From assembly GCA_964432835.1 (NCBI GenBank), contig CAYSPA010000001.1, positions 1-49,204 of the forward strand: a stretch of DNA of 49,204 nucleotides, given 5' to 3'. The notes beneath the pieces are model-generated. The model was not told the DNA's origin. It ran no database searches and was given only the letters and a program-made list of their open reading frames with translations. Shown here one piece after another: positions 16,357 to 47,809 of the stretch; the first letter of the stretch is position 1; each line of letters starts with the position of its first letter. Position numbers and translations under genes: made by a program. Source of the DNA: an uncultured Thermoplasmatales archaeon. GTDB lineage: Archaea > Thermoplasmatota > E2 > DHVEG-1 > B18-G2.

Positions 16357-16381
16357 TACAGATGGCAAGGGGGTTGATCAG

Positions 16382-17407
16382 TTGATAGAGGTGATAGATC
16401 AGTTATTCAAAGCCGTGTTTGGAGAGATAGTAATAGGGGTTTTCGCAATCATTATCGCTCTACTTTATAAGGGTATTGATAGAAAGATAGCCGCCCGTAT
16501 GCAGTCCAGGGTCGGACCGCCTGTGAGACAACCATTCAGAGATGTGATAAAGCTTTTCCTCAAAGAGAACGTTGTGCCGAGACATGCCACGAAGTGGCTA
16601 TTCAATTTATCCCCCGTAATTGCACTTGCATCTTCTATGACTATTCTGTTATACCTGCCAATGGGGAGTTTTGGACCCATACTTTCTACAGAAGGTGATC
16701 TTATACTTATTCTATATCTTTTGATCATACCATCCCTTGCCATGGTACTGGGTGGATTTGCATCAGGTTCACCTTACGCTACAGTCGGTGCACAGAGGGA
16801 GATGGTCCTGATGATGTCTCTGGAATTCCCCCTCGCCGTTGTTATCGTATCTCTGGCATGGAGACTGAAAGAAGTGGGGGTTTCAAACCCATTTTCACTC
16901 GTATCAATATCCTCAAATCCGATATGGAACAACGTCGGGGTTGTTGGTATAGTGGGATGTTCGATATTGCTATTGGTCCTTCTCCTGATAACACCTGGAG
17001 AGCTATCAAAGATACCGTTTGATGTGCCGGAGGCGGAGACGGAGATAGCGGGAGGTCTGCTTGCGGAATACTCTGGCAGAAATCTGGCCATGTTCTATCT
17101 CACCGATGCGGTGAAGACCGTAGTGGTGGCATCACTTATCGTGACTCTCTTCTTCCCCTACAATCTCTCGCCTTTCCTTTCGTTTTCCGGAATAACAGCT
17201 TACATCGTTGATTTCCTGTTCTATCTGTTCAAACTATTCCTTGTGATACTTTTTGCCGTCACCATGGTGAGGGTTGGCGTGGCGAGACTCAAGATAGACC
17301 AGGTAACAGCTGTGTACTGGATTAACTTAACATTGCTTGCGCTGATCGGACTGGTTCTCCTGATGTTCGACAAAATCCTGGTCATGAAAGGAATCTCGAT
17401 TTTTTGA
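16382..17407 (+). CDS. NuoH / HycD / MbhM-like membrane subunit
   Basis: 341 aa with a TTG start. DRKIAARMQSRVGPPVRQPFRDVIKLFLKE is the NuoH/HycD N-terminal signature; about 8 TM helices. Confidence 0.8.
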   Translation: MIEVIDQLFKAVFGEIVIGVFAIIIALLYKGIDRKIAARMQSRVGPPVRQPFRDVIKLFLKENVVPRHATKWLFNLSPVIALASSMTILLYLPMGSFGPILSTEGDLILILYLLIIPSLAMVLGGFASGSPYATVGAQREMVLMMSLEFPLAVVIVSLAWRLKEVGVSNPFSLVSISSNPIWNNVGVVGIVGCSILLLVLLLITPGELSKIPFDVPEAETEIAGGLLAEYSGRNLAMFYLTDAVKTVVVASLIVTLFFPYNLSPFLSFSGITAYIVDFLFYLFKLFLVILFAVTMVRVGVARLKIDQVTAVYWINLTLLALIGLVLLMFDKILVMKGISIF

Positions 17408-26500: not shown

Positions 26501-26751
26501 TTACCTATGCCGGTGGGCGCAACCGCAGCAAAACTTTCCCCCCTGGATATCCTCCTTATCCAGAACCTCTGAATCTCTCTCGGCTTCCCTATTACATCCC
26601 TGAATAGATTTTCTATTTCATCTTCTATCTTGTTATGGTAAACCGATGGCAGAGGTTTTCCCTTGATCAAACACTTTCCCGCATCTATATCCCTGTCTCT
26701 CAAATCGCTGCCACACACTGGACAGAGATTCTCGTAGACCGCCGGAAGCAT
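23560..26751 (-). CDS. rgy: Reverse gyrase
   Basis: 1063 aa. N-terminal zinc finger CPVCGS, helicase motifs APTGIGKT and FVDDVD, internal zinc ribbon CKKCN...CPKCGS, topoisomerase IA domain with TOPRIM IIGTDPDAEGEKIAWD and active-site GLITYHRTDS. Confidence 0.95.
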   Translation of the reverse strand: MLPAVYENLCPVCGSDLRDRDIDAGKCLIKGKPLPSVYHNKIEDEIENLFRDVIGKPREIQRFWIRRISRGESFAAVAPTGIGKTVFGLVVSLFFSLKGKRSYILVPTTILAKQCKENLERFCEKMGKSIGINDDGDVRIAFYHGKLGKKEREKFESIVKEGKFEILVTTTQFLSRNFDMLKDFVFDFIFVDDVDAILKASRNVDRILSLLGFRKVGKEWKGERKGVLMVSTATAKKGRATILFRELLDFDVGSSFFSIRNIEDIFVGREDVNAIREVMRTMGKGGIIYARSSEEAEKYYEELKKHFRIGISISKKKNEYEKFENGEVDFLIGTASHYGTLVRGLDLPEKIRYVIFIGVPVIRTDYDRISPSLLRILALSAKDDERIRDYLPILPKLENYPDKIQELKELIREIYKEDVSRDFVIEGKHIIFPDVRTYIQGSGRASRLTVRGLTKGASFIFENNEKVIRAFRERASYYDIEIKNLKDVDFESLRREIEESRSRKVESIDLIRPALFIVESPTKARLISRFFGKPSVKIYGSIIAYEIPTEKFILIVTACLGHVVDLSTDRGFYGVEIGEDFVPIYSSIKRCKKCNYQYTSEGACPKCGSNDILDSKDRIEDIRKLASQAGLVIIGTDPDAEGEKIAWDIHNFVSPLAEVKRAEFHEVTARAIREALQNLRDIDLNRVKAQIVRRIEDRWIGFTLSHKLWEKFNKTNLSAGRVQTPVLGWIIEQENKYRKRRKVNILPELDIEVEGDFDKEVDVEVILSSDREELRSPLPPHTTDELLRDASRILKLSSGETMKLAQDLFENGLITYHRTDSNRVSDVGLRIAREYLGDDFQGRRWGTGADEGAHECIRPTRAWDRYMLQRMIYERVISPENITKKHLALYDLIFKRFMASQCRDFTVRVKSYLIKIDGREIEDERIVAASGRAFDLYRNVHLKREIPVGKYRTRVETRFVPEGYPYTQADVVRLMKERGLGRPSTYATILEKLFERKYIYERNRLLFSTSLGKRVNHYLNSRYRDFVSEDRTRVLYRKIDEIEEGKLDYRDALREMYEEITRI

Positions 26752-35059: not shown

Positions 35060-35587
35060 ATGACGCCAACAGAAGACCTTGAAAAGCTCATTCCCGAACT
35101 GCAGTGGATAGATGACGAAGATTTGAAGGAAAAGGTTATCAGAGTGTGGATAGAAGCTACAAGGAGAGGTGGATGGAATAATGTACAGGAAATTCCTTTT
35201 ACCCTATCTTTCAAGAACTCGGGAACACTGATCGAGCATACGAGGAGGGTCGCTAAACTGGTCAAAAGTGTGGCTTCACAGAGAGACGAGGAGATCAATA
35301 TGAACCATCTCATTGCTGGCGCCCTGCTGCACGATATCGGCAAAGCCCTGGAATACGAGAAAGTTGGAAACGAGATAAGGGTAAGCGAATACGGGAAAAA
35401 GGTGAGACACCCCATATCCGGAGCAAATCTGGCAAGAGAACTCGGTGTACCAGAGGAGGTTGCTCATATCATAGAGAGTCATTCTCATGAAGGGGACAAA
35501 ATGAAGAGGAGCAGGGAATCCATCATCGTTCATCACTGCGATTTCATCGATTTTGAGTTGAGGAGGAGAGAGGTTGAAGGAGATTAA
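35060..35587 (+). CDS. HD-domain metal-dependent phosphohydrolase
   Basis: 175 aa with the H...HD motif as LLHDIGKALEYE plus downstream His residues (IIESHSHEGD). Overlaps the next gene by 14 nt. Confidence 0.75.
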   Translation: MTPTEDLEKLIPELQWIDDEDLKEKVIRVWIEATRRGGWNNVQEIPFTLSFKNSGTLIEHTRRVAKLVKSVASQRDEEINMNHLIAGALLHDIGKALEYEKVGNEIRVSEYGKKVRHPISGANLARELGVPEEVAHIIESHSHEGDKMKRSRESIIVHHCDFIDFELRRREVEGD

Positions 35588-36707
35588 AGTTGGCACCGAA
35601 AACGAGAGGGATTGTCTTGTAACGGTCAGAGATGGTAAAGGCGTAAATATCAATGCCGAGGCAAAGGTGGAGCTGACCAGAGAAGATATCGTCGATGTCA
35701 TCGAGGAATGTATAAATCTCTACGATGTTGATAACATAAATGTAACGGTGCGAGAATTTGGCGCCCTCGATTACGTAATAAGAGCGAGAACCTGCTGCGC
35801 CCTCTACAAATTCACCGGAAAAAAGGTGAAAGAGGAGGTCTTCACCAGAAAAGAAACAGAAAGAGACAAACTCAGGAGAAGCAGGCTGTATGTTCCCGGA
35901 AACAACCCGAGATTGCAGATAAATGCGGGTATATTTGGAAGTGATTGTATCATTCTCGACCTTGAAGATTCCGTACCTCCCGAGCAGAAGGAGGCAGCCA
36001 GATTCCTCGTTAAGGAGGCGCTGAAAACCCTCGATTTTGAAGAGACGGAGGTGTGGGTGAGAGTGAACAGAGAGTTTCTCGAGGAGGATATCGAGCAGGT
36101 GCTCGTGGGAAATCCACACGGAATATGCCTGCCAAAAAGCGAGTGCGCGGAGGATGTAAAAGAGGTTGAGAGAATCATAGGGAAATACGAAAAGATGTAC
36201 TCCATAAAGGGTACAAAACTGATGCCAATAATAGAGAGCGCAAGAGGTATATTGAATCTCGAGGAAATCGCGGGAGCAAGTGATAGAATAGTTGCCCTCG
36301 CTTTTGGTGCCGAGGATTTCACCAGAGATATCGGAGGAGAGAAGAGCTGGGATACTTTACTGTATGCACGCTCAAAGCTCGTTACAGTTGCAAAATCCTT
36401 CGATATACAGGCTCTCGATACAGTTTATAGTAGAATTGATGATATCGAGGGGCTCATGGAAGAAACGAGAAGAATCATAAAGATGGGCTTCGATGGTAAG
36501 GGTGCAATCCATCCGGAGCAGATAAGATACATACACGAGTGCTTTACACCCACGGAAGAGGAAATCGAATATGCCAAGAGAGTTATGGAAGCTATAGAGG
36601 AAGCTAAAAAGCGAGGCCTTGGTACAATCTCTCTTGACGGTAGGATGATAGACAAACCAATCGTCAAAAGAGCGGAGAGAATATTGAGATTGGGAGGTGT
36701 GCTATGA
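35574..36707 (+). CDS. citE: Fusion of citrate lyase acyl-carrier (CitD-like) domain and citrate (pro-3S)-lyase beta / citryl-CoA lyase (CitE)
   Basis: TTG start behind GAGGAGGAGAGAGG. The N-terminal ~90 aa is CitD-like (VGTENERDCLVTV..., FGALDYVIRAR). The rest is CitE/HpcH-like (RRSRLYVPGNNPR, IILDLEDSV, AFGAEDFT). Confidence 0.75.
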   Translation: MKEIKVGTENERDCLVTVRDGKGVNINAEAKVELTREDIVDVIEECINLYDVDNINVTVREFGALDYVIRARTCCALYKFTGKKVKEEVFTRKETERDKLRRSRLYVPGNNPRLQINAGIFGSDCIILDLEDSVPPEQKEAARFLVKEALKTLDFEETEVWVRVNREFLEEDIEQVLVGNPHGICLPKSECAEDVKEVERIIGKYEKMYSIKGTKLMPIIESARGILNLEEIAGASDRIVALAFGAEDFTRDIGGEKSWDTLLYARSKLVTVAKSFDIQALDTVYSRIDDIEGLMEETRRIIKMGFDGKGAIHPEQIRYIHECFTPTEEEIEYAKRVMEAIEEAKKRGLGTISLDGRMIDKPIVKRAERILRLGGVL

Positions 36708-38239
36708 TAAACGCTGCCGGTAGAGAAATACCATCAGAGCTTGCGGGAAGAAAACTCAAACCATACAGAGGTCCGTTTTCAACCCGTCCCTCCGGCAGGC
36801 GCAAGGCACCGAGGATAAAATTCCATGACCCGAGAAAAAGCAAGGTGCTTAAATCCATAAGAGAGGCGATCAAAAAGGTTGGTCTGAAAGATGGGGATAC
36901 CATCTCGTTCCATCATCACCTCAGGAACGGAGATCATGTTGTTAACATGGTACTTGATACTATAGCCAGGATGGGGATAAAAGATATTCGCTTGGCTGCC
37001 ACCGCTCTGTTTCCAATTCATGATAAGGTTATACAGCACATAAAGAACGGGGTTGTTACCAGAATAGAGGGTAGTATGAATGGACCGGTTGGGGCATTTG
37101 TATCGGAGGGAGGCAAACTGAAGGAGCCAGCCATCCTGAGGTCTCATGGCGGGAGAGCCAGAGCGGTTGCGAGCGGTGAACTGGATATAGATGTCGCTTT
37201 TATTGCTGCACCAATATGCGATGACTATGGTAATTGCAACGGAAGATATGGAAAATCAGCATTCGGTGCGATGGGATACGCTTACACAGATACTGTATAT
37301 GCAGAACATACCGTTGTTATAACGGATAATATCCAACCTTACCCCGTTACTCCTCCCATAGTCCAGCAGACCTTTGTGGATTATATCGTAAAGGTCGATT
37401 CGATAGGCGACCCTTCCGGCATCCAGACGGGAACTCTGAGGATAACCAGAAGTCCTGCCCGTCTCAAGATCGCAAGAGAAGCCATCAATGTCCTTGCGGC
37501 AGCTGGAATTCTGAAAAACGGCGTATCCATCCAAGCGGGTGCCGGCGGTATAAGTCTGGCTGCCACAAAGTTCGTACACGAGTACATGAAGAAACATGGT
37601 ATGGTCGGAAGCTTTGTTATGGGAGGGACAACCAAGTATGTCGTTGATATGCTGAGAGAAGGAACCATGATGAAGATACTCGATGGACAGACGTTTGATC
37701 TTGCTGCAATAGAATCCTTGAGAACCAACCCGATGCACGTTGAGATAAATAACACATTCTATGCCGATATCCATTCTGGCGGATGCGCCGTAGACAAGCT
37801 CGATGCGGCTTTTCTCGGTGGAACAGAGATAGATATCAACTTCAACGTGAATGTGAACACTCACTCGGACGGAAAACTTCTGCACGGTATAGGGGGTCAT
37901 CAAGACGTTGCGGCTGGGGCAGGGGTAACGATTTTGCTCATGCCCACAGTCAGGGGAAGGATACCCACGATAAGAAAAGAAGTTACAACCGTAACCACGC
38001 CGGGAGAAACAGTGGATGTTCTCGTTACTGAGAGGGGAGTCGCTGTAAATCCAAGGAGGGAAGATCTCATTGAAGACCTTAAGGGAAAGGTTCCGCTTGT
38101 TGATATCGAGGACCTTTACAAAAGAGTGAGAAGATTCTGCAAAGAACCAAGAGAACCAGAACTCGGAGATGAAATCGTTGCGATTATAGAATATAGAGAC
38201 GGAACGGTCATAGATGTCGTCAGGGCTGTGAAATCCTAA
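36704..38239 (+). CDS. citF: Citrate lyase alpha subunit / citrate CoA-transferase
   Basis: 511 aa. N-terminus NAAGREIPSELAGRKLKPYRG, with ISFHHHLRNGD and LGGTEIDINFNVNV typical of CitF. ATGA overlap with the previous gene. Confidence 0.8.
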   Translation: MINAAGREIPSELAGRKLKPYRGPFSTRPSGRRKAPRIKFHDPRKSKVLKSIREAIKKVGLKDGDTISFHHHLRNGDHVVNMVLDTIARMGIKDIRLAATALFPIHDKVIQHIKNGVVTRIEGSMNGPVGAFVSEGGKLKEPAILRSHGGRARAVASGELDIDVAFIAAPICDDYGNCNGRYGKSAFGAMGYAYTDTVYAEHTVVITDNIQPYPVTPPIVQQTFVDYIVKVDSIGDPSGIQTGTLRITRSPARLKIAREAINVLAAAGILKNGVSIQAGAGGISLAATKFVHEYMKKHGMVGSFVMGGTTKYVVDMLREGTMMKILDGQTFDLAAIESLRTNPMHVEINNTFYADIHSGGCAVDKLDAAFLGGTEIDINFNVNVNTHSDGKLLHGIGGHQDVAAGAGVTILLMPTVRGRIPTIRKEVTTVTTPGETVDVLVTERGVAVNPRREDLIEDLKGKVPLVDIEDLYKRVRRFCKEPREPELGDEIVAIIEYRDGTVIDVVRAVKS

Positions 38240-38421
38240 TCCCTGGATGCCCCTTCGCTCTTTTGTTTTTCCAGGTATCTCTTCCTTATTTCCCTGGCGA
38301 GCTCACCATCCTCTATGACTAAAGCTCCTTCATATCCGCAATCTCTGCATCTCCATTTGCTCCAGGTCTGGGGCAAAACCCACTCTATGTTCGATGAACC
38401 GCAGTTTGGACAGTACTTCAT
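38236..38421 (-). CDS. Small zinc-ribbon protein
   Basis: 61 aa with CPNCGS...CRDCG. Convergent with citF, overlapping it by 4 nt. Confidence 0.6.
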   Translation of the reverse strand: MKYCPNCGSSNIEWVLPQTWSKWRCRDCGYEGALVIEDGELAREIRKRYLEKQKSEGASRD

Positions 38422-38491: not shown

Positions 38492-38499
38492 TTTTTATA
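38492..38499 (+). promoter_or_regulatory. TATA-like element (TTTTTATA) for the RHH/sulfation operon
   Basis: About 50 nt upstream of the RHH start and immediately 5' of the 16-bp palindrome. Confidence 0.45.
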
Positions 38500-38508
38500 C
38501 CAGAACTG

Positions 38509-38524
38509 TAATTACATGTAATTA
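38509..38524. promoter_or_regulatory. Perfect 16-bp palindrome TAATTACATGTAATTA, candidate operator
   Basis: Read directly. It sits between the TATA-like element and the SD (GGGGGTGA) / TTG start of the RHH gene, over the expected TSS. Confidence 0.6.
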
Positions 38525-38550
38525 AAAATAATTAAACCGGGGGTGAATGG

Positions 38551-38784
38551 TTGTCCGAAAAGAATGAGAAAAAGTTCACCACGATATCCATACCAACTGC
38601 TCTGGCGGAGAAGATAAAGAAGAAGATAGAGGGTACGGGCTTTCACTCCCTCTCATCGTATGTGACGTATGTTCTGAGGGAGTTGCTCGCCAGCATGGAA
38701 GAGGAGGGAGCGGGTGAAGCACTGACGAAGGAAGAAGAGGAGAAGATAAAGGAGAGATTGAGAGCCCTTGGTTATCTGGACTGA
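38551..38784 (+). CDS. Ribbon-helix-helix (CopG-like) DNA-binding protein
   Basis: 77 aa with a TTG start. KKFTTISIPTALAEKIKKKIE... fits the beta-strand/helix/helix pattern of RHH proteins. Acidic C-terminal tail. Confidence 0.65.
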   Translation: MSEKNEKKFTTISIPTALAEKIKKKIEGTGFHSLSSYVTYVLRELLASMEEEGAGEALTKEEEEKIKERLRALGYLD

Positions 38785-38801
38785 TTGAGAGGGTGATTTG
38801 C

Positions 38802-39929
38802 GTGACAAAACCTCATGGAGGCAAACTGATCAACAGATGTGTGTTCAGGGATGTTGATCTGGATGATGCCAACGTTGTAAGAGTTAATGCGGATAGAGCA
38901 GAGGATATCGAGAATATAGCGCACGGCGTATTTTCTCCTCTCGAGGGATTCCTGTGTCGTAATGATCTGGAAAGCGTGCTGGACGATAAAAGATTGGACA
39001 ACGATATTCCATGGACGATACCCATACTCCTTGACCTCGATGAGAAAGAACTCGCCGGCGCAAAGGAAGGGGATACCATCTTTCTGGCACACGAAAATGG
39101 AATGGTATCGGAGATGGAAATCGAAGAGATATACACTATCGATAAAAAGAGGGTCGCGGAGAAGGTCTATGGAACCACAGATCCGTCTCATCCAGGAGTA
39201 AGCATGACCTTCAACATGAAAGACCTTATAATCGGAGGCAGAATAACTCTGCTGAAAGAAGGGAAAAAACCTTTTGATGAATTTCTCCTGTGGCCGAAGG
39301 AAACGAGGGTTCTCTTCAGGGAGAAGGGATGGAAGGAGGTTGTTGCTTTCCAGACGAGAAATCCTCCTCACATCGGACATGAATACGTTCAGAAAACGGC
39401 GCTGACCTTTGTAGATGGACTATTCATCAACCCTCTGATAGGCAGGAAGAAAAAGGGGGATTTCAGAGACGACGTTATACTTAAGGCATACGAGACACTC
39501 ATCCAGAACTATTACCCAAAGGACAGGGCTGTGCTGTCGATACTCTGCACCTCAATGAAATACGCGGGTCCGAGAGAGGCGATACACCATGCCATAATGA
39601 GGAAAAACTTCGGATGCACGCATTTCATAGTTGGTAGAGACCATGCCGGCGTTGGTAACTTTTATCCGCCTTACGCCGCTCACGAGATATTCAGAGAATT
39701 TCCGGACCTCGGAATTAAACCCGTGTTCTTCAGATCTTTCTTCTACTGCAAGAAATGTGGAGGCGTCGTGAACGAAAAGATATGTCCTCACCGCGGTGAT
39801 GATATCATCAACTTCAGCGGAACAGCCATAAGAAAGATGCTGAAAAATGGAGAGGTTCCACCATCTACGATGATGAGAAAGGAGGTCGCAGAAACAATCC
39901 TCGGATTTGACAGAATGTTCGTGGAGTGA
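38802..39929 (+). CDS. sat: Sulfate adenylyltransferase (ATP sulfurylase)
   Basis: QTRNPPHIGHEY and HFIVGRDHAGVG motifs. N-terminus VTKPHGGKLINR. GTG 38802 preferred over GTG 38793 because of GAGGGTGA spacing. C-terminal zinc-like CKKCG...CPH. Confidence 0.9.
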   Translation: MTKPHGGKLINRCVFRDVDLDDANVVRVNADRAEDIENIAHGVFSPLEGFLCRNDLESVLDDKRLDNDIPWTIPILLDLDEKELAGAKEGDTIFLAHENGMVSEMEIEEIYTIDKKRVAEKVYGTTDPSHPGVSMTFNMKDLIIGGRITLLKEGKKPFDEFLLWPKETRVLFREKGWKEVVAFQTRNPPHIGHEYVQKTALTFVDGLFINPLIGRKKKGDFRDDVILKAYETLIQNYYPKDRAVLSILCTSMKYAGPREAIHHAIMRKNFGCTHFIVGRDHAGVGNFYPPYAAHEIFREFPDLGIKPVFFRSFFYCKKCGGVVNEKICPHRGDDIINFSGTAIRKMLKNGEVPPSTMMRKEVAETILGFDRMFVE

Positions 39930-39935
39930 ATCGAT

Positions 39936-40895
39936 ATGGGAGACATTCTCATACACCACTGGGACACAGATGGGATATGCTCCGCTCATCTGCTCATGAA
40001 ACATCTTGGAGAGAAAATCAGAAACATAACTCCCCAAATAGGAAACTACTGCCTCACCGATGAAGAGATGGATATGCTCGGGGGATTTGACGGGATTTTC
40101 ATTGTCGATATGGCTCTGCCAGAGGACAACATAAAGAGGTTATCCCGATCTTCTGAAGTTACCGTCTATGACCATCACGTACAGAGCTACATGGATTTCA
40201 TACATCACATAAATCCCGTTGCGAAGGGTTCCAGACAGGAGGATTATCCATCATGCACATGGGTACTCAAAGAGCACTTTAAAATCGATACAGATCTGCA
40301 GGTCATTCTCGGAATAATCGGGGATAACGAACACAAGATAAAAGAGAATGGGAGATTCTATGAAATAGTAAGGAAGTTCTGCGAGAGATCTTCCACAACT
40401 CTGGAAGACCTCGTGAGAGCCGTTCATCTCATAGATTCCAACTACAAACTCGGCAAAAAGGATGCCGTTGAGAAAATTCCCCATTATATAGGAGAGATGA
40501 GCATAGATGACATACTGAATTGCGAGGACTGGAACAGAAATCTGGAGACGATAGAGAAAGAGATAGAAGGAGCGATGAATAAAAGACGATCCGTTGGGAA
40601 AAACCTAGAGATGATAGATATAGAATCGCCTTACAATGTGATATCTGAGATAACAAGGCGCCTGGCGTGGAGCACGGGAAAGAATGCGGTGGTGATAAAC
40701 AGGGGTTTCTTTCCAGATAAATCCCAGATTTATGTGAGAACGTCAACCATGGATCTATCAAATCTCATAGGCAAACTGAAATCCATGGGTTATAACGTTG
40801 GTGGTAAACCAAAGGTTCTGGGTGCAATCGTACCCAAAAAATCTACTGATATGGTGGTGAATGAAGTCCTTAAATTCTTGGAGGGTGAGAATTGA
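39936..40895 (+). CDS. DHH/DHHA1-family phosphoesterase (candidate pAp phosphatase / nanoRNase)
   Basis: 319 aa with motif I HHWDTDG, motif II IVDMA, motif III VYDHHV and a degenerate DHHA1 glycine motif NVGGKPKVLGA. Confidence 0.7.
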   Translation: MGDILIHHWDTDGICSAHLLMKHLGEKIRNITPQIGNYCLTDEEMDMLGGFDGIFIVDMALPEDNIKRLSRSSEVTVYDHHVQSYMDFIHHINPVAKGSRQEDYPSCTWVLKEHFKIDTDLQVILGIIGDNEHKIKENGRFYEIVRKFCERSSTTLEDLVRAVHLIDSNYKLGKKDAVEKIPHYIGEMSIDDILNCEDWNRNLETIEKEIEGAMNKRRSVGKNLEMIDIESPYNVISEITRRLAWSTGKNAVVINRGFFPDKSQIYVRTSTMDLSNLIGKLKSMGYNVGGKPKVLGAIVPKKSTDMVVNEVLKFLEGEN

Positions 40896-41455
40896 TGGTG
40901 AATTATATTGTGTCTGGTCTTGAGAGAAGTGGAACATCGATGATGATGCAGATTTTATACAGAGGCGGGGCGCCGGTGGCATTTGATGACAAGAGAAAAC
41001 CGGATTATCACAATCCCAAAGGATACTTTGAGCTGGAAGGTGGCAAAATCATCAACAAACTCATGGAGGGCTCCTTTCCGATAGAGAAGTACGATGGGAA
41101 GTTTATAAAGGTGACAGCTTACGGTTTGAGATTCCTCCCGCGGAGGGATTACAAGATTATATACATGACGAGAAACATCGATGAAATAATAGATTCCATG
41201 GAGAAGATGTGTGGTCCAATAAATAGGGAAGAGGAAAAGCCGCTGCTGGAAAAACTCAACAGATTGACAATCAAACTCATGGATGAAAGAGAAGATATGA
41301 CGTATATAATTGTCAGGTACAACGATGTTATAAGGAATCCAAGAAAAGAGATCGAGAGGGTAAACGAGTTCCTTGGAGGCATGCTCGATGTGGATGAAGC
41401 TGTAAAGGCCGTGGATAAGAAGCTTTATAGAAATGTGAGGGAGGTGAGACCATAA
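40895..41455 (+). CDS. Small PAPS-dependent sulfotransferase-family protein
   Basis: About 186 aa. 5'-PSB-like loop IVSGLERSGTSMMMQ, 3'-PB-like KIIYMTRNIDEIIDSM. GGAGGGTGAG SD. The ATG overlaps the previous stop by 1 nt. Confidence 0.7.
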   Translation: MVNYIVSGLERSGTSMMMQILYRGGAPVAFDDKRKPDYHNPKGYFELEGGKIINKLMEGSFPIEKYDGKFIKVTAYGLRFLPRRDYKIIYMTRNIDEIIDSMEKMCGPINREEEKPLLEKLNRLTIKLMDEREDMTYIIVRYNDVIRNPRKEIERVNEFLGGMLDVDEAVKAVDKKLYRNVREVRP

Positions 41456-41460
41456 GTGGA

Positions 41461-41970
41461 GTGACGGTATGGTTTACCGGTTTGCCGTGCTCCGGTAAAA
41501 CAACGATAGCGAGAGAAGTTATGAAAAGACTGGAAGGCAAATATGATGTCGAGTTGCTGGATGGTGATACCGTAAGAGATTACATAAGAAACAGGGATTT
41601 TTCGAGGGAAGGTAGAAACAAACACCTGAGATACATAGCGCTGATGGCGAGATTACTCTCAAAGAGAGGGGTGATCGTCCTCTGCTCCTTCGTGAGTCCA
41701 TACAGGGAGAATAGGGATTTTGCCAGAAAGATAAACGATAACTTCGTGGAGGTCTACGTGAAGGCACCTTTGGAGGTTTGCATAGAGAGGGATGTGAAGG
41801 GCATGTACAAAAAGGCACTGAACGGAGAGATAAAGGGCTTTACCGGTATAGATGACCCCTACGAAGAGCCAGATGATCCCGAACTGGTCATCGAGACGGA
41901 TAAAGAGACACTTGAGGAATCCACAAATAAGGTTCTAAACAAACTTCGAGAACTTGGCTATATAGATTAA
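41461..41970 (+). CDS. cysC: Adenylyl-sulfate (APS) kinase
   Basis: 169 aa, GTG start. VWFTGLPCSGKTTIA P-loop, LDGDTVR, SFVSPYRENR, FTGIDDPYEEP. Confidence 0.9.
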   Translation: MTVWFTGLPCSGKTTIAREVMKRLEGKYDVELLDGDTVRDYIRNRDFSREGRNKHLRYIALMARLLSKRGVIVLCSFVSPYRENRDFARKINDNFVEVYVKAPLEVCIERDVKGMYKKALNGEIKGFTGIDDPYEEPDDPELVIETDKETLEESTNKVLNKLRELGYID

Positions 41971-41971
41971 A

Positions 41972-42757
41972 ATGTTCACCATAGACATCGGTGGCTTGGA
42001 GATAGGAATTTCCATCACCATAGTGTTACTCGCATTCATATGCGAACTCATAAACTCATTACTTGGCGGAGGGCACGGAACCCTGATGACTCCTCTCCTG
42101 ATACTATTGGGCTATACTCCACTTTCCATAGTACCTGCGGTCCTGCTTGCTGAAATAGTGAGTGGCTTCCTCGTGAGCGTGGCCCATCACAAGTACGGTA
42201 ACGTAAACTTCAGGATGGACTCAAACCATCTCAACGTCGCTCTCGTTCTCGGTGTATGCAGTGTGATCGGCGTGGTTATTGCGGTTGTAACCGCCATAAA
42301 CATCTCCACCTATATCTTGGAGATGTATATTGGCATTCTCCTTACCGCGGTGGGCATTATTATGATAACGAGCATGAAGATCAAGTCCACCTTCTCATGG
42401 AGAAAGGTGCTCGCCCTCGGAATCTTTGCATCTTTTAACAAGGGCATAAGTGGAGGAGGGTATGGACCTATAATCACCGTTGGTCAGCTCCTTACAGGAT
42501 TCAACAGTAAAGAATCCGTGAGCATCAGTTCACTGGCCAAGAGTATAACGTGTGTTGTGGGATTCATCGCCTATATCCTGCTGTACAGAAATATAGACAC
42601 CGTTCTTCTTCCCTCTCTTGTAATGGGTTCGATATTCTCCGTTCCAATATCTGTATTTGTTGTCAAAAGATTGCATGAAAAGAAACTCAGGATACTCATA
42701 GGTGCTGTCACAATAATCTTGGGTTCATCTACTCTCATCAGGTTGTTGCTGTTCTGA
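41972..42757 (+). CDS. TauE/SafE (TSUP) family anion permease
   Basis: 261 aa, about 8 TM helices, two-repeat layout with G-rich helix starts (LLGGGHGTLMTP, GISGGGYGPI). Confidence 0.75.
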   Translation: MFTIDIGGLEIGISITIVLLAFICELINSLLGGGHGTLMTPLLILLGYTPLSIVPAVLLAEIVSGFLVSVAHHKYGNVNFRMDSNHLNVALVLGVCSVIGVVIAVVTAINISTYILEMYIGILLTAVGIIMITSMKIKSTFSWRKVLALGIFASFNKGISGGGYGPIITVGQLLTGFNSKESVSISSLAKSITCVVGFIAYILLYRNIDTVLLPSLVMGSIFSVPISVFVVKRLHEKKLRILIGAVTIILGSSTLIRLLLF

Positions 42758-42820: not shown

Positions 42821-43834
42821 ATGAGAGCGATGGTTTTAGAGAAGATCACCCGGGTTGAGAATGAACCGCTCAAACTCAGGGAAGTGAAGATACCGGAGAT
42901 ATCGGAAAATGAGATCCTCGTTAAGATATCTGTATGCGGTGTATGCCATACAGAGCTTGATGAGATAGAGGGGAGGGTGAAGCCAAAACTCCCGGTAATT
43001 CCGGGACACGAGATAGTGGGATACGTCGAGAAGACGGGAAGCGGAGTGAAAAGATTCGATACGGGCGACAGGGTGGGAATAGGATGGATATACTCCGCAT
43101 GTGGAGAATGTAAGTTCTGCAAAAGCGGTAGAGAAAACCTGTGCTACAATTTCAGAGCCACGGGATGTGATGAAAATGGCGGTTATGCGGAATACATCAA
43201 GATAAATGAGAACTTCGCCTATCCAATTCCCGACACCTTTTCTGATTCAGAGGCTGCTCCTCTGATGTGCGCCGGCGCCATAGGCTACAGGGCGCTGAGA
43301 CTTACACAGATGAGGGATGGAGATACCATAGCACTCTATGGTTTTGGTGCATCGGCACATATAGTGATACAGATCGTTAAGCATCTTTATCCAGACTCTC
43401 AGGTATTTGTGTTCACAAAACGAAGGGATGATGAGCCGAGCAAACTCGCAAGAAAGATGGGAGCTGACTGGGTTGGGATTACTGGAGATACACCTCCAGA
43501 GAAATTTGATAGAGCCATAGATACAACCCCCGTGGGTATTCCGGTTGCAGAAGCTCTGAGGAACATGGAGAGGGGAGGGAGGCTTGTGATAAACGCCATC
43601 AGGAAAGAGACAAAGATTCCAGAGATGGACTATGCCAACCATCTGTGGGAGGAGAAGGAGGTAAAGAGCGTTGCGAATATAACAAGGAAGGACATAGAGG
43701 AATTTCTCAAGATAGCTGCTGAGATACCGATAAAGCCAGAGGTGAAAGAATTCAAACTCGAAGAGGCAAACAGGGCACTTGTTATGTTGAAACATGGAAA
43801 ATACAGAGGGGCTGGCGTTTTGAAAGTAATTTAA
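42821..43834 (+). CDS. Zinc-dependent alcohol dehydrogenase (MDR family)
   Basis: 337 aa with CGVCHTELDE, GHEIVGYV, the structural-zinc Cys cluster CGECKFCKSGRENLC and GFGASAH. Confidence 0.9.
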   Translation: MRAMVLEKITRVENEPLKLREVKIPEISENEILVKISVCGVCHTELDEIEGRVKPKLPVIPGHEIVGYVEKTGSGVKRFDTGDRVGIGWIYSACGECKFCKSGRENLCYNFRATGCDENGGYAEYIKINENFAYPIPDTFSDSEAAPLMCAGAIGYRALRLTQMRDGDTIALYGFGASAHIVIQIVKHLYPDSQVFVFTKRRDDEPSKLARKMGADWVGITGDTPPEKFDRAIDTTPVGIPVAEALRNMERGGRLVINAIRKETKIPEMDYANHLWEEKEVKSVANITRKDIEEFLKIAAEIPIKPEVKEFKLEEANRALVMLKHGKYRGAGVLKVI

Positions 43835-45525
43835 CCGAATGAAACCCCCATTTCCAGAAATTTCCTGGTCACATCCGCATCATCCAGGATGCGGAACAGC
43901 TCATCTTCATTTCTGATGGGTCTATTCATGATTATTCTTAGTGCCCTTTTTTCTCCTATACCGGGAATAGCCTTCAGTGTTTCAACGGGGACGCTGTTTA
44001 TTTTTATGGGATATGGCAGAGCGGTAACCGAGCGGTAACCGTGGTCTGTGATTTTGACATCCATGAATTTTCCGAGTTCGATCTTTCCGGGAATACCGAC
44101 TAGGATGGGATAACTTCCGAGTTGTCTTGCAAAGGTAATTTTTCCGATATGGATTTCCGTGTAAACATCCCTCATAATGGTTCCCTCTGGAACCACCCTT
44201 CTCAGCATCTCTCTGTCTATCTTTTCCCTCACCATTCTCTTGAATCGTTTGAACAACTCCATGTGCCTCTTCATTATCCTGTTTCCCACTTCATACATCC
44301 TCGTTCCGGGCAGAGGAATAACCTGTCTGAGATTTATCCTGCGAATCAGCAAACCTCTATCCAGTATCTCTTTCAGAAGATCAAGATCGCGAACGAACGT
44401 TTCTTTACTTTCTCCCTTCAATCCAAAAACGAAGTTCAATCCCGGCAGAAACTCGGGCAGACCATTGTATCCCCTTTTTGAGCCAACCTCATTTATTATG
44501 CTGACCGCTTTGATAACATCTTCGGGATATGCCTTCAGATTGTTTTCCCTTATTACTTTTGGGTCTGCACTCTCCACACCAAAGGCTGCAACATCCCCCG
44601 GAGTGTGATACTTGATGATGATCTTTGCTATCCTTTTGCACTCATCCGGATATCTGGCTATCACTCCAGGATTTGCGTTATCCACATGTAGCGTTTTTAT
44701 ATCGGGGGCAACATTCCTTATGCCTCGAAAAAGCCTCTCGATCTCATCGGGGGATGGTTTTGGAAATTCTTCCCTGCCGGTATCGATGGCTCTGTACGAG
44801 AATATGCAGGGTTGATTACCTATCCTGAAATGTCTGATTCCATGCCGGTAGAGAGAGGAGATCTCCGCCACTATGTCTTTTACTTCTCTGAAGACGGGCA
44901 AACCTTTCAAAGGCTCTATGCAAAAAGAACAGCCTCCCGTTATAGATCTCGGACAACCCCTGTAGGTTTCTATCTCCGCTATGATATAATCCGGGTAGTT
45001 TGGATGCTGTTTGACAATACCCGCCCCTCTTATGGCAAACTCTCTTATCTCTGTGTAATCTTCTCTCGTTGCATCAGGGTCAGCATCTCCACCCTTCAGA
45101 AATTCTTTCAGAAAAATCTCTCCATCTCCTTTCACAACAAAATCAAATACATCCCTGACCTCCCTCGGCTTTACTCCTCCAGCCACACCGAAACCGAATC
45201 TGCCCGCAGGTCCGCACAGTATCTTTACCGGTCTGTTTACCTTTTCCAGATATTTTCTTATCTCCTTGGGGTGGGCGGGATACGTGGAGAGATACCTTCC
45301 CGGTACAGCCATTCCCGCTATTACAGCAATGATATCAAAGACATCGAGTTCCCGAATCGTTACATTACCTCTTCTCAAATCATCGATGGTGATGTATCTC
45401 ACATCTGCGTCTCTATCAATGCTCCAGGCGGCGCCTGCAAGGTATCGCGGATATGGGCTTATGTAGGGAGGTACACCGAGGCATGTGGGCTCATCCACGT
45501 ATCCATCGAGAATCGCTATCCTCAT
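43831..45525 (-). CDS. Radical SAM protein with N-terminal B12-binding-like domain and C-terminal helix-hairpin-helix (MJ_1487-like family)
   Basis: ORF 43831..45558; ATG 45525 preferred (MRIAILDGYVDEPTCLGVPPYISPYPRY), which overlaps the upstream small-ORF stop as ATGA. Cys cluster YRGCPRSITGGCSFC. C-terminal LKAIPGIGEKRALRI HhH. Family name is from memory. Confidence 0.8.
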   Translation of the reverse strand: MRIAILDGYVDEPTCLGVPPYISPYPRYLAGAAWSIDRDADVRYITIDDLRRGNVTIRELDVFDIIAVIAGMAVPGRYLSTYPAHPKEIRKYLEKVNRPVKILCGPAGRFGFGVAGGVKPREVRDVFDFVVKGDGEIFLKEFLKGGDADPDATREDYTEIREFAIRGAGIVKQHPNYPDYIIAEIETYRGCPRSITGGCSFCIEPLKGLPVFREVKDIVAEISSLYRHGIRHFRIGNQPCIFSYRAIDTGREEFPKPSPDEIERLFRGIRNVAPDIKTLHVDNANPGVIARYPDECKRIAKIIIKYHTPGDVAAFGVESADPKVIRENNLKAYPEDVIKAVSIINEVGSKRGYNGLPEFLPGLNFVFGLKGESKETFVRDLDLLKEILDRGLLIRRINLRQVIPLPGTRMYEVGNRIMKRHMELFKRFKRMVREKIDREMLRRVVPEGTIMRDVYTEIHIGKITFARQLGSYPILVGIPGKIELGKFMDVKITDHGYRSVTALPYPIKINSVPVETLKAIPGIGEKRALRIIMNRPIRNEDELFRILDDADVTRKFLEMGVSFG

Positions 45526-45776
45526 TCTCTCATCGTAATGGCTTTTATTGAGCAACAACCTCTCTTTTCATCAAACCACTCGCATCTCACCCCAAGACAT
45601 CTCACCAGATTCCCATGCCTGCTCATAACCGGACAGTACCCGTTCATGATGGAGAAATGGACAATGGTGTAGATTTTGGTTTCCATCACCTTCGACAGAG
45701 GGAGAATGACCATCTCATCCACACCCTTCAATCTTTCATCTCCTTTCGCATATCTGCGATTCAATGGGCACGGCAT
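45522..45776 (-). CDS. Small Cys-rich hypothetical protein, translationally coupled to the radical SAM gene
   Basis: The C-terminal part (...YCPVMSRHGNLVRCLGVRCEWFDEKRGCCSIKAITMRE) is in an open frame ending in ATGA with the rSAM start. Start uncertain: 45776 behind GGGGA, 45713 behind GGGTG, or 45686. The 126-aa version from 45902 is unlikely (see findings). Confidence 0.45.
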   Translation of the reverse strand: MPCPLNRRYAKGDERLKGVDEMVILPLSKVMETKIYTIVHFSIMNGYCPVMSRHGNLVRCLGVRCEWFDEKRGCCSIKAITMRE

Positions 45777-45948
45777 CGAATCCCCGATTTCTTCTCGCCC
45801 TTTTTGCGAAAGGTCAGCGCGATCGGGAGGGAGGTCGCTCGTCTGGTTATAGCTTCGCTCACAATTCCGTTTATCGGAAAACCCACATCGAAAGCGAGCC
45901 ATTCCCGTGATGTGTATATAAGTTCCCGGGAGAAATCCATGACAAGCG

Positions 45949-46254
45949 TCATTTCTTTTCTCCCAACCTTCTTTTAATCTCTTTGCATATCTTGCATACC
46001 TCGCTGTCTATGGATGACGACCCCCTGAATATCCGGTCGGCAGATTCTCTCAACATTGTGCGAATCTCTTCATCCGGCTCAAAACCTTTTCCCCTTTTCT
46101 CTGTCAGATACTGGGAAACCGCTGCATCGGTGAGTCCCAACCTTCTGGCTATGTCCCTGTTACACATCCCGTAGTCCTCGGAAAGTATCTTTACCACTTC
46201 CTTTCTGATGGATGGTATCACATTCTTAACGATAAACTCACACGGCGGGCTCAT
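45949..46254 (-). CDS. HTH transcriptional regulator with C-terminal CxxC
   Basis: 101 aa with HTH CNRDIARRLGLTDAAVSQYL and C-terminal CKICKE. Confidence 0.7.
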   Translation of the reverse strand: MSPPCEFIVKNVIPSIRKEVVKILSEDYGMCNRDIARRLGLTDAAVSQYLTEKRGKGFEPDEEIRTMLRESADRIFRGSSSIDSEVCKICKEIKRRLGEKK

Positions 46255-46269
46255 GTTTCACCAAAAGTT

Positions 46270-46290
46270 TAAATAGAGTAATACTATTTA
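46270..46290. promoter_or_regulatory. Inverted repeat TAAATAG-n7-CTATTTA in a divergent promoter region
   Basis: Read directly. Each arm is TATA-like for one of the two divergent genes (HTH regulator and DUF1858 gene). It could also be an operator. Confidence 0.45.
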
Positions 46291-46327
46291 GAGTTAACGC
46301 CGTTAATATGGATGTAGGGATGAGAAA

Positions 46328-46525
46328 ATGAAAATAACAAAGGATATGACAATTGCAGAAGCCCTCAAATACCCGGGTGTGGGGGAGGTCTTAGCTAAAT
46401 ATGGAATAGGCTGTTTCATGTGTCCCATGATGAGCCTGGAGAGGATAGAGGATATAGCAAGGGTTCACGGCATTGATATAGATACCCTGCTCAAGGAACT
46501 CAACGATGCCGTAAACAAAAAATAA
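46328..46525 (+). CDS. DUF1858-type small redox-disulfide protein
   Basis: 65 aa. TIAEALKYPGVGEVLAKYGIGCFMCPMMSLERIEDIA matches the DUF1858 / hybrid-cluster-associated CxxC domain pattern. Confidence 0.7.
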   Translation: MKITKDMTIAEALKYPGVGEVLAKYGIGCFMCPMMSLERIEDIARVHGIDIDTLLKELNDAVNKK

Positions 46526-46585
46526 AACCTGACAACATTTCTTTACTCCGGTATCCGCTTTCCTCTCATATGGAGATGGTGAGCA

Positions 46586-47809
46586 ATGAGACGCGGATAT
46601 CTGTTCATCGCCCTCGTAATCACCGCAGTCCTCCTCTCATTGATCGCGAGCTCTGCGGATGATAAAAAGGTGGTTCTCGAATTCTTTTATTCGTCTCACT
46701 GTGGGGATTGTGAAGAGAAGATGCCCGTGATAGATGAGATAGAGCGGGAGTACGGAGACCAGATCATCGTCTACAGGAAAGACATCTCGACGAGTGAAGA
46801 GTATCTGGAGGAGTGGCAGAGGTATGGTCTCTACGATGTGCCGGCCGTGGTGATAAATGGAAGGACAAAAGTCGATTACTACGGGATCACAAAGGAAAAT
46901 CTCGAGAGTATAATAGACGCCTACCTCTCTGGAAATATAACGTGGGAAGAAAACGCAACCCGCATAGAGCTACCTTTCTTCGGAGTTGTAGATGAAAAGG
47001 AACTCTCCCGCCTCTCCTTACCACTCCTCGCGATCGTCCTCGGTTCGATCGATGGTTTCAATCCATGTTCCTTTTTTGTTCTCATAGTGTTGCTGAACTT
47101 GCTCATCTATGCGGGTTCTAAAAGAAAAATTGCCCTTATAGGAGGAATCTTTATTTTCTTCTCAGGTTTCATATATTTTATCTTCATGTCCGCCCTGCTC
47201 AACATATTCGCACTGACCTCGCACATCGCTATCATCACAGTGCTTGCTGGAGTTATAGCGTTATTTCTGGGTTCGCTCAACATAAAGGACTTCTTTTTCT
47301 TCAAGAAAGGGATAAGTGCGAGCATACCGGATAGCAAAAAGCCAAAACTGTACAAGCGCATGCGCTCCCTGCTAAAAACATCGAGATTATCATCTGTAAT
47401 CGCTGGAACGATCGTTCTCGCGATATCCGCAAATACTTATGAACTGTTCTGCACGCTCGGTTTCCCGATGATCTTCACGAGAGCGCTGACTTTGCATGAC
47501 CTGCCCACCGCGGTATATTATTTCTACCTGATTCTGTACAACATCGCGTATGTTATTCCTCTGATCGTCATTGTCACAATATTTGCCGTCACCCTTGGGA
47601 GAAAAAAACTCACCCGATCGCATGGCAGGTTTTTGAAACTGGTGTCAGGCACCCTAATGTTCTCGCTTGGAATCGTCCTTCTCGTAAATCCACCTCTCCT
47701 TAACAACCCCATCGCATCGGTGGCGATCCTCGTTTCCGCAATATCGGTATCTGCAATTCTGCATCTCATCTGGGAAAAATTCAGAGTATCATCTGAAGGG
47801 ACTGCTTGA
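46586..47809 (+). CDS. Thioredoxin-fold domain fused to a CcdA/DsbD-type thiol:disulfide transporter membrane domain
   Basis: 407 aa with a signal/anchor, thioredoxin-like FFYSSHCGDCEE, then a polytopic domain with GFNPCSFFVL (CcdA-type NPC motif) and a second Cys (ELFCTLGFP). Confidence 0.75.
   Translation: MRRGYLFIALVITAVLLSLIASSADDKKVVLEFFYSSHCGDCEEKMPVIDEIEREYGDQIIVYRKDISTSEEYLEEWQRYGLYDVPAVVINGRTKVDYYGITKENLESIIDAYLSGNITWEENATRIELPFFGVVDEKELSRLSLPLLAIVLGSIDGFNPCSFFVLIVLLNLLIYAGSKRKIALIGGIFIFFSGFIYFIFMSALLNIFALTSHIAIITVLAGVIALFLGSLNIKDFFFFKKGISASIPDSKKPKLYKRMRSLLKTSRLSSVIAGTIVLAISANTYELFCTLGFPMIFTRALTLHDLPTAVYYFYLILYNIAYVIPLIVIVTIFAVTLGRKKLTRSHGRFLKLVSGTLMFSLGIVLLVNPPLLNNPIASVAILVSAISVSAILHLIWEKFRVSSEGTA

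Follow-up and report, generated by a model that had tools for sequence, protein, structure and literature searches.

A set of six genes from an uncultured Thermoplasmatales archaeon (GenBank assembly GCA_964432835.1, contig CAYSPA010000001.1, positions 1 to 49,204; this whole stretch of 49,204 nucleotides is referred to below as the window) probably forms a self-contained and regulated sulfation module, one in which sulfate import, its activation to 3'-phosphoadenosine 5'-phosphosulfate (PAPS), transfer of the sulfuryl group, removal of 3'-phosphoadenosine 5'-phosphate (PAP, also written pAp) and transcriptional control are predicted from the genes to be combined. The six genes lie on the plus strand across 38551-42757, as read from the list of open reading frames (ORFs) and the sequence, and encode in order a CopG-like ribbon-helix-helix (RHH) protein, ATP sulfurylase (Sat), a DHH-type PAP phosphatase (PAPP), a sulfotransferase (ST), adenosine 5'-phosphosulfate (APS) kinase (CysC) and a TauE permease. 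In the proposed pathway the TauE permease would import sulfate, Sat and CysC would turn it into APS and then PAPS, the cytosolic 186-aa ST would hand the sulfuryl group to an acceptor, and the DHH enzyme would split the inhibitory PAP into AMP and phosphate, with the RHH protein predicted to bind three TAATTA-type 10-bp repeats before its own start codon and in this way to control the operon. The acceptor class would most likely be a sugar, in the form of a nucleotide sugar or of a glycan, lipid-linked or nascent, that faces the cytoplasm.

The gene arrangement is far beyond chance, because in 84 ST loci that were compared (many of those without a core gene being cut by contig ends) sat is adjacent to the ST gene in 57, the PAPP gene in 59, cysC in 65 and the RHH gene in 67. 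These comparisons draw on a one-genome-per-species scan that returned 168 relatives of the ST, with neighbourhoods taken from the best 80 of the 168. An earlier, sequence-only reading of this DNA had put forward PAPS as a sulfuryl donor in an operon without a reductive branch in cis, and this central idea survives, no reductase having been found in the window or the ST loci; conservation of the gene neighbourhood in relatives, which that reading had left to be seen, is evident in a core block that recurs across Thermoplasmatota.

Genes and control region of the operon

The functions that had been assigned from the sequence (Sat, CysC, ST, a PAP-removing DHH protein and TauE) are all upheld by profile or homology searches, the motifs quoted at that time were all recovered in the translations of the Sat, CysC, ST and DHH proteins, and the intergenic spacings of 17, 6, -1, 5 and 1 nt were matched exactly on re-reading of the ORF list and the sequence, the ATG of the ST gene overlapping the stop codon of the DHH gene by one base (TGATG). 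Sat contains the Pfam ATP-sulfurylase (7.9e-94) and PUA_2 (9e-44) domains, exceeds the cutoffs of NF003166 (517 bits, cutoff 387) and TIGR00339 (383 bits, cutoff 323), and has the active-site motifs QTRNPPHIGHEY and HFIVGRDHAGVG (QxRNxxHxxH and GRDHAG); an alternative GTG start at 38793 would give a protein of 378 aa. CysC matches APS_kinase (6.1e-54) and TIGR00455 (199.9 bits, cutoff 138.7) and has the P-loop GLPCSGKTT. The permease passes the gathering score of PF01925 (3.5e-30, 105.8 bits, cutoff 32.6) over residues 18-252 of 261 and is recognised as a multi-pass membrane protein. We infer both its substrate and its direction, and sulfate uptake is favoured because DASS sulfate symporters take its position in other loci.

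At the level of orthologues, the DHH protein is related to two archaeal PAP phosphatases with biochemical proof, namely MtPAPP of Methanothermococcus thermolithotrophicus, the structure of which has been solved (PDB 8A8K; Jespersen and Wagner, 2023; PMC10322725), and PyapApase of Pyrococcus yayanosii, which belongs to the same family (Jin et al., 2021; PMC8268124), and it is predicted from this relationship to hydrolyze PAP. In a phmmer search against all PDB sequences the sole real match was 8A8K (E 3.8e-44, residues 4-311, 308 of 319), and the Mn ligands His6, Asp8, Asp10, Asp57, His76, His77 and Asp127 reported for MtPAPP (PMC10322725) correspond to H8, D10, D12, D58, H80, H81 and D130, all of which are kept. 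The motifs HHWDTDG and YDHH are present, the Pfam DHH match (8.7e-7) lies in the N-domain and just above the cutoff, and the GGK of DHHA1 is retained in the stretch YNVGGKPKVLG. The sequence-only reading had called the protein an NrnA-type pAp hydrolase; the homology to 8A8K agrees with PAP phosphatase, and the type is that of MtPAPP and PyapApase, not classical NrnA.

The 186-aa protein is a minimal PAPS-type sulfotransferase whose activity is predicted from its motifs, profiles and modelled fold. It scores above the gathering cutoffs of two Pfam models, PF00685 Sulfotransfer_1 (5.2e-10, 39.6 bits, cutoff 22) and PF13469 Sulfotransfer_3 (5.7e-9, 37 bits, cutoff 27), and its predicted fold resembles that of PAPS-dependent sulfotransferases, profile and fold being the two points on which the sequence-only reading had staked this assignment; no NCBIfam model matches it. 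The motifs SGLERSGTSMM, resembling a 5'-phosphosulfate-binding (5'-PSB) loop, and TRNIDEIIDS, resembling a 3'-phosphate-binding (3'-PB) motif, are both present, and an alignment with 25 homologues (60-87% identity) shows G8, E10, R11, G13, T14, S15, R93 and S101 to be invariant, the 5'-PSB-like loop G-x-E-R-S-G-T-S being placed after the first strand and R93...S101 forming the 3'-PB-like element. In the same way the family profile aligns KIIYMxRxxxxxxxS to the SULT motif KIIYVARNAKDVVVS, and a Y-x-D-V-x-x-N-P stretch to the corresponding SULT segment. The AlphaFold2 (AF2) model is of good quality (predicted local distance difference test, pLDDT, 89; predicted template modelling score, pTM, 0.87), and its best Foldseek matches in the PDB are StaL, TPST2, Teg12, SULTs and the ST domains of CurM/OLS (E 3.5e-5 to 1e-3, TMq 0.5-0.63, 12-22% identity), with a few nucleotide kinases scoring alike; sequence-level PDB matches are nearly all sulfotransferases.

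The ST is about 60-110 residues shorter than enzymes of the StaL/TPST/SULT type and is without the C-terminal third of Sulfotransfer_1 (matched over 5-195 of 255), and because of this missing third the shortened enzyme may have an open acceptor site. In cytosolic SULTs it is the C-terminal third that holds the GxxGxxK motif and the substrate-covering loops. A conserved loop at residues 31-50, modelled with low pLDDT and having invariant N40, Y44 and E46, would probably form the acceptor and catalytic-base region.

The RHH protein is a likely autoregulator of the operon, its binding to DNA being predicted. Three tandem 10-bp units of TAATTA type (TGTAATTACA, TGTAATTAAA and AATAATTAAA), found in a search for direct and inverted repeats, lie between a TATA-like box and the RHH start codon, and autoregulation is the simplest explanation because short tandem repeats in this position are the expected operator of an RHH protein. 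The three-unit pattern TAATTAMANNTAATTAMANNTAATTA occurs once in the window and in 0 of 100 shuffles, and of 55 archaeal loci, 45 have paired TAATTA-like cores with a spacing of 10-11 bp ahead of the RHH gene, as against 15 of 4706 background windows of 130 nt. Paired repeats of this kind are also found upstream in the Thermococcus locus, and most of the orthologous archaeal loci, as well as Thermococcus (L086), have the same T-rich TATA-like box ahead of these repeats. Upstream of the bacterial ST genes, inspection for a TAATTA-like operator showed only A/T-rich stretches resembling a -10 element. A scan for sigma-70 promoters and intrinsic terminators, models that do not apply to archaea, gave no more matches than shuffled sequences. 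The left end that the sequence-only reading had given to the operon, 38492, is that of the TATA-like box; no start codon is found at this position, and the RHH gene begins at 38551.

The RHH sequence has a compatible pattern, the strand TTISIP followed by two helices, and its homologues are labelled as CopG family regulators (NCBI) or Arc/MetJ-type RHH regulators (JGI). Its profile matches are below threshold (RHH_1 13.2 bits, cutoff 20.5, E 0.088; YlcI_YnfO_N 13.1 bits, cutoff 30), and the AF2 monomer, a poor model with a pLDDT of 65, has helices at 16-26, 34-52 and 60-72, that is, two helices and a third at the C-terminus. The acidic C-terminal tail (...KEEEEKIKERLRALGYLD) is almost invariant in archaea and bacteria, with the last 17 residues (...SKEDEEKVKERLRALGYLD) conserved beyond the DNA-binding part, and this tail may serve in effector sensing or docking. 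The RHH C-terminus ...KERLRALGYLD (38733-38784) resembles that of CysC, ...NKLRELGYID (41941-41970), and an ...LGY[IL]-like tail is found in 39 of 65 APS kinases of the fetched loci and in those of M. thermolithotrophicus and Thermococcus; the motif could be a common docking helix. The positions of all these elements are collected in Table 1.

Table 1. Elements of the sulfation operon in the window, and the NPP-like gene of other loci.
Feature	Position	Strand	Basis or remark
TATA-like box TTTTTATA	38492..38499	+	read from sequence; putative promoter element
Putative RHH operator, three tandem 10-bp units	38507..38536	+	repeat search; between TATA box and RHH start
RHH, 77 aa, CopG-like	38551..38784	+	start codon TTG, preceded by GGGGGTGA
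sat, homo-oligomeric ATP sulfurylase, 375 aa	38802..39929	+	GTG preceded by GAGGGTGA
DHH/DHHA1 PAP phosphatase, 319 aa	39936..40895	+	homology to MtPAPP
ST, 186 aa, minimal PAPS-type	40895..41455	+	Pfam and predicted fold
cysC, APS kinase	41461..41970	+	Pfam and TIGR00455
TauE/TSUP permease, 261 aa	41972..42757	+	Pfam; sulfate import predicted
NPP-like gene (PF01663), other loci	L086 7930-9345; L089 13111-14643; also L036, L025		

Conservation, variation and the search for a reductive branch

The ST belongs to a family of about 2200 close database members (25 clusters at 50% identity with E <1e-30 and about 1360 with E <1e-10), and the hosts of the ST loci are mostly Thermoplasmatota, including Aciduliprofundum/DHVE2, together with Archaeoglobaceae, a 'Thermococci' metagenome-assembled genome (MAG) and a Methanomicrobia MAG. 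Most of the archaeal ST loci, those of the 'Thermococci' and Methanomicrobia MAGs among them, have the block RHH-sat-PAPP-ST-cysC, in some cases with cysC ahead of the ST gene. In the 46 loci with the complete set of five genes, the proteins have median identities to their counterparts in the window of 72% for RHH, 67% for ST, 64% for Sat, 54% for CysC and 40% for PAPP, and the ST of the Aciduliprofundum boonei type is 72% identical to that of the window. The ST is more constrained than the PAPS-making enzymes and is no decaying passenger.

Several parts of the cluster are exchanged between lineages. Among the ST loci, TauE trails the operon only in close relatives of the window and in one Methanomicrobia locus, and in 35-36 other loci a Na+/sulfate symporter of the DASS family and a Usp-like protein are found in its position; outside the ST loci, TauE also follows cysC in Thermococcus and M. 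thermolithotrophicus. In one locus (L078, 3140-5339) a CysD (303 aa, PAPS_reduct) and a CysN (428 aa, EF-Tu-like GTPase) stand in for Sat between the RHH and PAPP genes, and another (L053) has the same unfilled gap from RHH to PAPP, CysDN being only probable there. These displacements, Sat by CysDN and TauE by DASS, keep sulfate import and PAPS synthesis intact and therefore support a logic of supply, activation, transfer and recycling.

The PAPS-consuming gene, in turn, is a variable slot, because M. thermolithotrophicus keeps the core and has a PAPS reductase (PAPSR) in place of the ST. Its locus lacks an ST and reads sat-PAPP-cysC-TauE-PAPSR alpha-PAPSR beta, that of Thermococcus paralvinellae reads RHH-sat-PAPP-NPP-like-(toxin-antitoxin pair)-cysC-TauE, and that of the Aciduliprofundum boonei type reads RHH-sat-DHH-ST-cysC-DASS-x-NPP. 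The slot is filled by the ST in the window, by PAPSR alpha/beta in M. thermolithotrophicus and by an NPP-like gene in Thermococcus.

Thirteen ST loci come from MAGs labelled bacterial, and the neighbourhoods examined are of Aminicenantes/Acidobacteriota and Dehalococcoidia; in bacteria an ST-RHH pair occurs without sat or cysC. In Archaeoglobaceae and related MAGs (L031, L034, L039 and L040) the ST has no RHH, sat, PAPP or cysC within 7 kb, and it always follows a conserved 250-aa protein without a Pfam match, with a transglutaminase-like gene and GlmS adjoining and a conserved GAAAAATATTAAAGAC box upstream. On a contig labelled Dehalococcoidia (L035, 2835-4536) the ST is fused to a C-terminal DUF2061 membrane segment, and the adjoining APS kinase has an N-terminal cytidylyltransferase-like domain.

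No PAPS, APS or sulfite reductase was found in the 49-kb window by a Pfam survey, in which gene-like ORFs of at least 100 aa were searched and the rest was taken from precomputed Pfam hits of near-identical contigs, and no CysH, CysI/J, NIR_SIR or AprAB-like PAPSR was found in the window or in about 7 kb around the ST in the 84 loci. In local phmmer runs, E. coli CysH, CysI and CysJ and the M. thermolithotrophicus PAPSR alpha and beta subunits were compared with every ORF of the window and 90 loci (0.98 Mb). Besides generic flavoprotein or ferredoxin similarity, the only match was the PAPS_reduct (PF01507) protein of L078, which was rejected as a reductase since an EF-Tu-like GTPase follows it and the two constitute CysD/CysN, the alternative ATP sulfurylase. 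The absence of a reductive branch that had been claimed from the sequence thus holds, by Pfam and phmmer, for the window and for the 84 ST loci.

Use of the PAPS and nature of the acceptor

It is improbable that the operon mainly feeds assimilatory sulfate reduction, through PAPS and sulfite reductases encoded elsewhere in the genome and with the ST as a side branch. The sat-PAPP-cysC-TauE core does serve assimilation in M. thermolithotrophicus, but in this sole proven assimilatory case the reductase is in the operon, and here the ST holds that slot. Thioredoxin-type APS/PAPS reductases are scattered in archaeal genomes at a distance from sat and cysC, which would suit such an arrangement, but the lack of any reductive gene in the window and the ST loci, and the conservation of the ST, which exceeds that of Sat and CysC, argue against it. 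The same is true of the source habitat, taken from the isolate names to be a sulfidic hydrothermal vent, and of two other archaea, P. yayanosii, in which no enzymes for the conversion of sulfite to sulfide are recognisable by KEGG (PMC8268124), and M. infernus, which has a full predicted reductive set and yet does not grow on sulfate (PMC10322725).

A role of PAPS and pAp as signalling nucleotides, which would make the operon a regulatory circuit, was suggested for P. yayanosii, where the cluster proteins increase under high pressure (PMC8268124). The operon of the window also encodes its own regulator, the tail of which is conserved, but signalling would leave both a conserved ST with intact PAPS-binding motifs and a dedicated sulfate transporter without explanation. 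Moreover, to our knowledge pAp signalling is known only as a by-product of PAPS use, and we consider this explanation very improbable. An equally small chance is given to a protein tyrosine as the acceptor, in which the ST would sulfate the Tyr of the RHH C-terminus ...LGYLD and the PAPS level would feed back on transcription. The RHH and ST genes are the two best conserved of the operon, their pairing extends to bacteria without sat or cysC beside it, the tail Tyr beside an acidic run hardly varies over 67 loci, the structural comparison puts tyrosylprotein and phenol sulfotransferases near the top among the neighbours of the ST, and in distant homologues the ST is joined to TPR peptide-binding repeats. 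However, the Thermococcus cluster lacks an ST and yet begins with a gene for an RHH protein that has an identical tail, the Archaeoglobaceae and Dehalococcoidia ST loci have no RHH gene nearby, the operator repeats give the RHH protein an ordinary explanation, and many APS kinases share an ...LGY[IL] tail, which may be structural or serve in docking.

It is likewise scarcely to be expected that the 186-aa protein is not an ST but a P-loop kinase-like or other nucleotide-binding protein, for example a sensor of PAPS or APS or a chaperone of the pathway. Its unusual shortness, with the C-terminal third of the Sulfotransfer_1 model missing, the sugar and guanylate kinases that Foldseek gives at similar E-values, and a catalytic base for which E46 is only a candidate would all be accounted for in this way; its P-loop, however, is RSGTS as in TPST and bacterial STs, not GKS/T, the 5'-PSB and 3'-PB motifs are both invariant, and the two Pfam models and the sequence-level PDB matches all point to sulfotransferases.

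Several points weigh against a sulfation module. The search for reductases covered the window, one part of its genome, and the ST loci; a PAPS reductase of the thioredoxin type could act in trans, and Palaeococcus pacificus, which has sat and cysC plus a distant cysH, provides a precedent. For proteins of the TauE family the usual annotation is export of sulfite or sulfonates. The RHH assignment, below the Pfam threshold and with a poor AF2 monomer model, is weak, and for the catalytic base of the ST there is only a candidate, the invariant E46 in a low-confidence loop. Finally, the link to glycans is suggestive only, as it consists of neighbourhood counts without a background rate from whole genomes.

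With sulfation retained as the preferred reading, a sugar or glycan acceptor is the leading guess, held tentatively and at rather less than an even chance. In Aminicenantes the ST is part of an ST-RHH-epimerase-UGDH-UGDH operon, in 8 or 9 Thermoplasmatota loci the operon is followed by co-directional NTP-transferase-GlmS-NTP-transferase(-Wzx) genes, GlmS is beside the ST in Archaeoglobaceae, and WbqC/PIG-L/UGDH/GT4/AglH-like genes abut the operon in the locus of the Aciduliprofundum boonei type. In the 'Thermococci' MAG (L026, 125-4675, minus strand) genes for two glycosyltransferases of the GT2 family, a second and larger ST (350 aa) and a Wzx-type flippase run divergently from RHH-sat-PAPP-ST-cysC, and they look like a sulfated-glycan cluster that draws on the same PAPS supply.

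Another clue comes from the NPP-like protein. In many distant homologues the ST forms the C-terminal domain, with TPR repeats and a type I phosphodiesterase/NPP-like domain on its N-terminal side, and this NPP-like domain is homologous to the NPP-like protein of the Thermococcus cluster (at least 22 fusions, E down to 1e-34). An NPP-like gene (PF01663) also closes the ST-containing operon in Aciduliprofundum. The ST and the NPP-like enzyme appear from these arrangements to be functionally linked, because they are fused in many bacteria and co-operonic in Aciduliprofundum. The NPP-like protein has no sequence relative in the PDB and matches no NCBIfam model. An NPP-like enzyme of the alkaline phosphatase superfamily, encoded elsewhere, may be a partner in the pathway. 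A more specific proposal, that the ST and the NPP-like enzyme form a two-enzyme module under RHH/TAATTA control that sulfates a cytoplasmic nucleotide sugar or dolichol-linked glycan with privately made PAPS, is more speculative and on balance unlikely.

Window context, known systems and biological meaning

A reverse gyrase of 1063 aa with helicase, Toprim and topoisomerase IA domains (Pfam) is encoded in the window (23560-26751, minus strand) and confirms that the source organism is a (hyper)thermophile. The nearest public relative, whose ST is 99% identical, belongs to the Thermoplasmata and is a MAG obtained from a hydrothermal site. Two citrate lyase genes (35574-38239) immediately precede the operon and encode a beta subunit of 377 aa, CitE-like and fused at its N-terminus to an ACP domain, and an alpha subunit of 511 aa, CitF; between citF and the RHH promoter there is a 61-aa ORF on the minus strand (38236-38421) with two CxxC pairs, zinc-ribbon-like and without a Pfam match, which is a called gene in 4 of 4 near-identical public contigs. 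An HD-domain protein (35060-35587) precedes the citrate lyase genes; an ST-HD fusion (P0125) was considered as a link to it and rejected, the similarity being that of a generic HD motif (22% identity). Downstream are a zinc-type alcohol dehydrogenase gene (42821-43834) and, at 43831-47809, genes for a 575-aa radical SAM protein, ThiS-like and ThiF-like proteins (identified on L001, a near-identical contig) and a thioredoxin-domain protein of 407 aa; these sulfur-carrier genes do not co-occur with the operon in other lineages. Further upstream (11990-17407) are membrane subunits of the Mrp/Mbx type (MnhE, MnhB, NuoK-like, NuoL/M-like and NuoH-like) that probably belong to a membrane-bound complex of the respiratory or antiporter type.

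Dedicated sets of PAPS supply and sulfotransferase are known from bacteria, such as the rhizobial nodP/nodQ and nodH genes for Nod-factor sulfation and the mycobacterial CysDNC, Stf0 and CysQ, and their logic is that proposed for the window, with private activation, a PAPS-dependent sulfotransferase acting on a sugar-containing acceptor, and a PAP phosphatase. They differ in the parts used, since the bacterial sets have CysDN where the archaeal loci mostly have homo-oligomeric Sat, and a CysQ-type where these have a DHH-type PAP phosphatase, while NodH and Stf0 are only distantly related to the 186-aa ST and archaeal control would be by an RHH protein. At the level of fold, the ST of the window shares a P-loop-like architecture with StaL/Teg12 (glycopeptide), TPST1/2 (protein tyrosine), SULTs and CurM/OLS, the fit being moderate (TM ~0.5-0.63).

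The operon belongs to a cluster type already described in outline and represents a known kind of system. Jin et al. (2021; PMC8268124) drew the cluster for P. yayanosii (pych_17520-17570), F. placidus, A. boonei (aboo_0230-0235), A. pernix and I. hospitalis, and named CopG, ATP sulfurylase, a DHH pApase, an NPP-like protein, APS kinase and an adjacent DUF81/TauE protein; they treated it as assimilatory, characterised only the pApase, and gave the adjacent sulfotransferase one sentence. Gene set and order are the same in the window, whose operon is orthologous to the version of the A. boonei type, although that version has a DASS transporter where the window has TauE, as well as both an ST and an NPP-like gene, and in Pyrococcus/Thermococcus the slot between pApase and CysC holds the type I phosphodiesterase/NPP-like protein and not an ST; the Thermococcus version and that of the A. 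boonei type were both verified in the loci compared here. The M. thermolithotrophicus locus has the same sat-PAPP-cysC-TauE core and a homologous PAP phosphatase with identical metal ligands, but it has an APS-reductase-like PAPSR alpha/beta and no ST, whereas the window has an ST and no reductase; the window also has an RHH gene, and the 70 bases of contig upstream of sat in M. thermolithotrophicus are too few to judge one there. The novelty that the sequence-only reading had claimed for such a pathway is accordingly reduced, the cluster and its adjacent ST being already in print (PMC8268124), and what stands is that no paper on this ST family and no characterised archaeal PAPS-dependent sulfotransferase was found in the literature searched, which omits most subscription journals. 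New here are the TAATTA-repeat operator, the comparison that reveals a variable PAPS-consumer slot, the displacements of Sat by CysDN and of TauE by DASS, the fusion link between the ST and the NPP-like enzyme, and the recurrent sugar-nucleotide neighbourhood.

Many anaerobes among the Thermococcales, Methanococcales, Archaeoglobi and Thermoplasmatota have sat, cysC and a PAP phosphatase, and the purpose of their PAPS was left open in both previous studies (PMC10322725; PMC8268124). Of the two archaea looked at, M. infernus does not grow on sulfate and P. yayanosii has no recognisable reductive pathway, and methanogens that have sat, cysC and PAPP without growth on sulfate have been suggested to use a 'non-canonical sulfo-transferase' route (PMC10322725). 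With a gene of the ST family in the exact slot of the M. thermolithotrophicus PAPS reductase, the purpose of PAPS becomes experimentally addressable. We know of no sulfotransferase that has been identified for the sulfate esters of archaeal glycans or lipids, and the ST would be the first candidate enzyme. The RHH protein and the TAATTA repeats would constitute a compact regulon, possibly one that senses sulfate, PAPS or pAp. If the proposal of an ST/NPP-like module is true, the module would fill the place of the missing 'non-canonical' sink for PAPS in anaerobic archaea able to activate sulfate but not to reduce it, and it would provide the first genetic handle on archaeal glycan sulfation.

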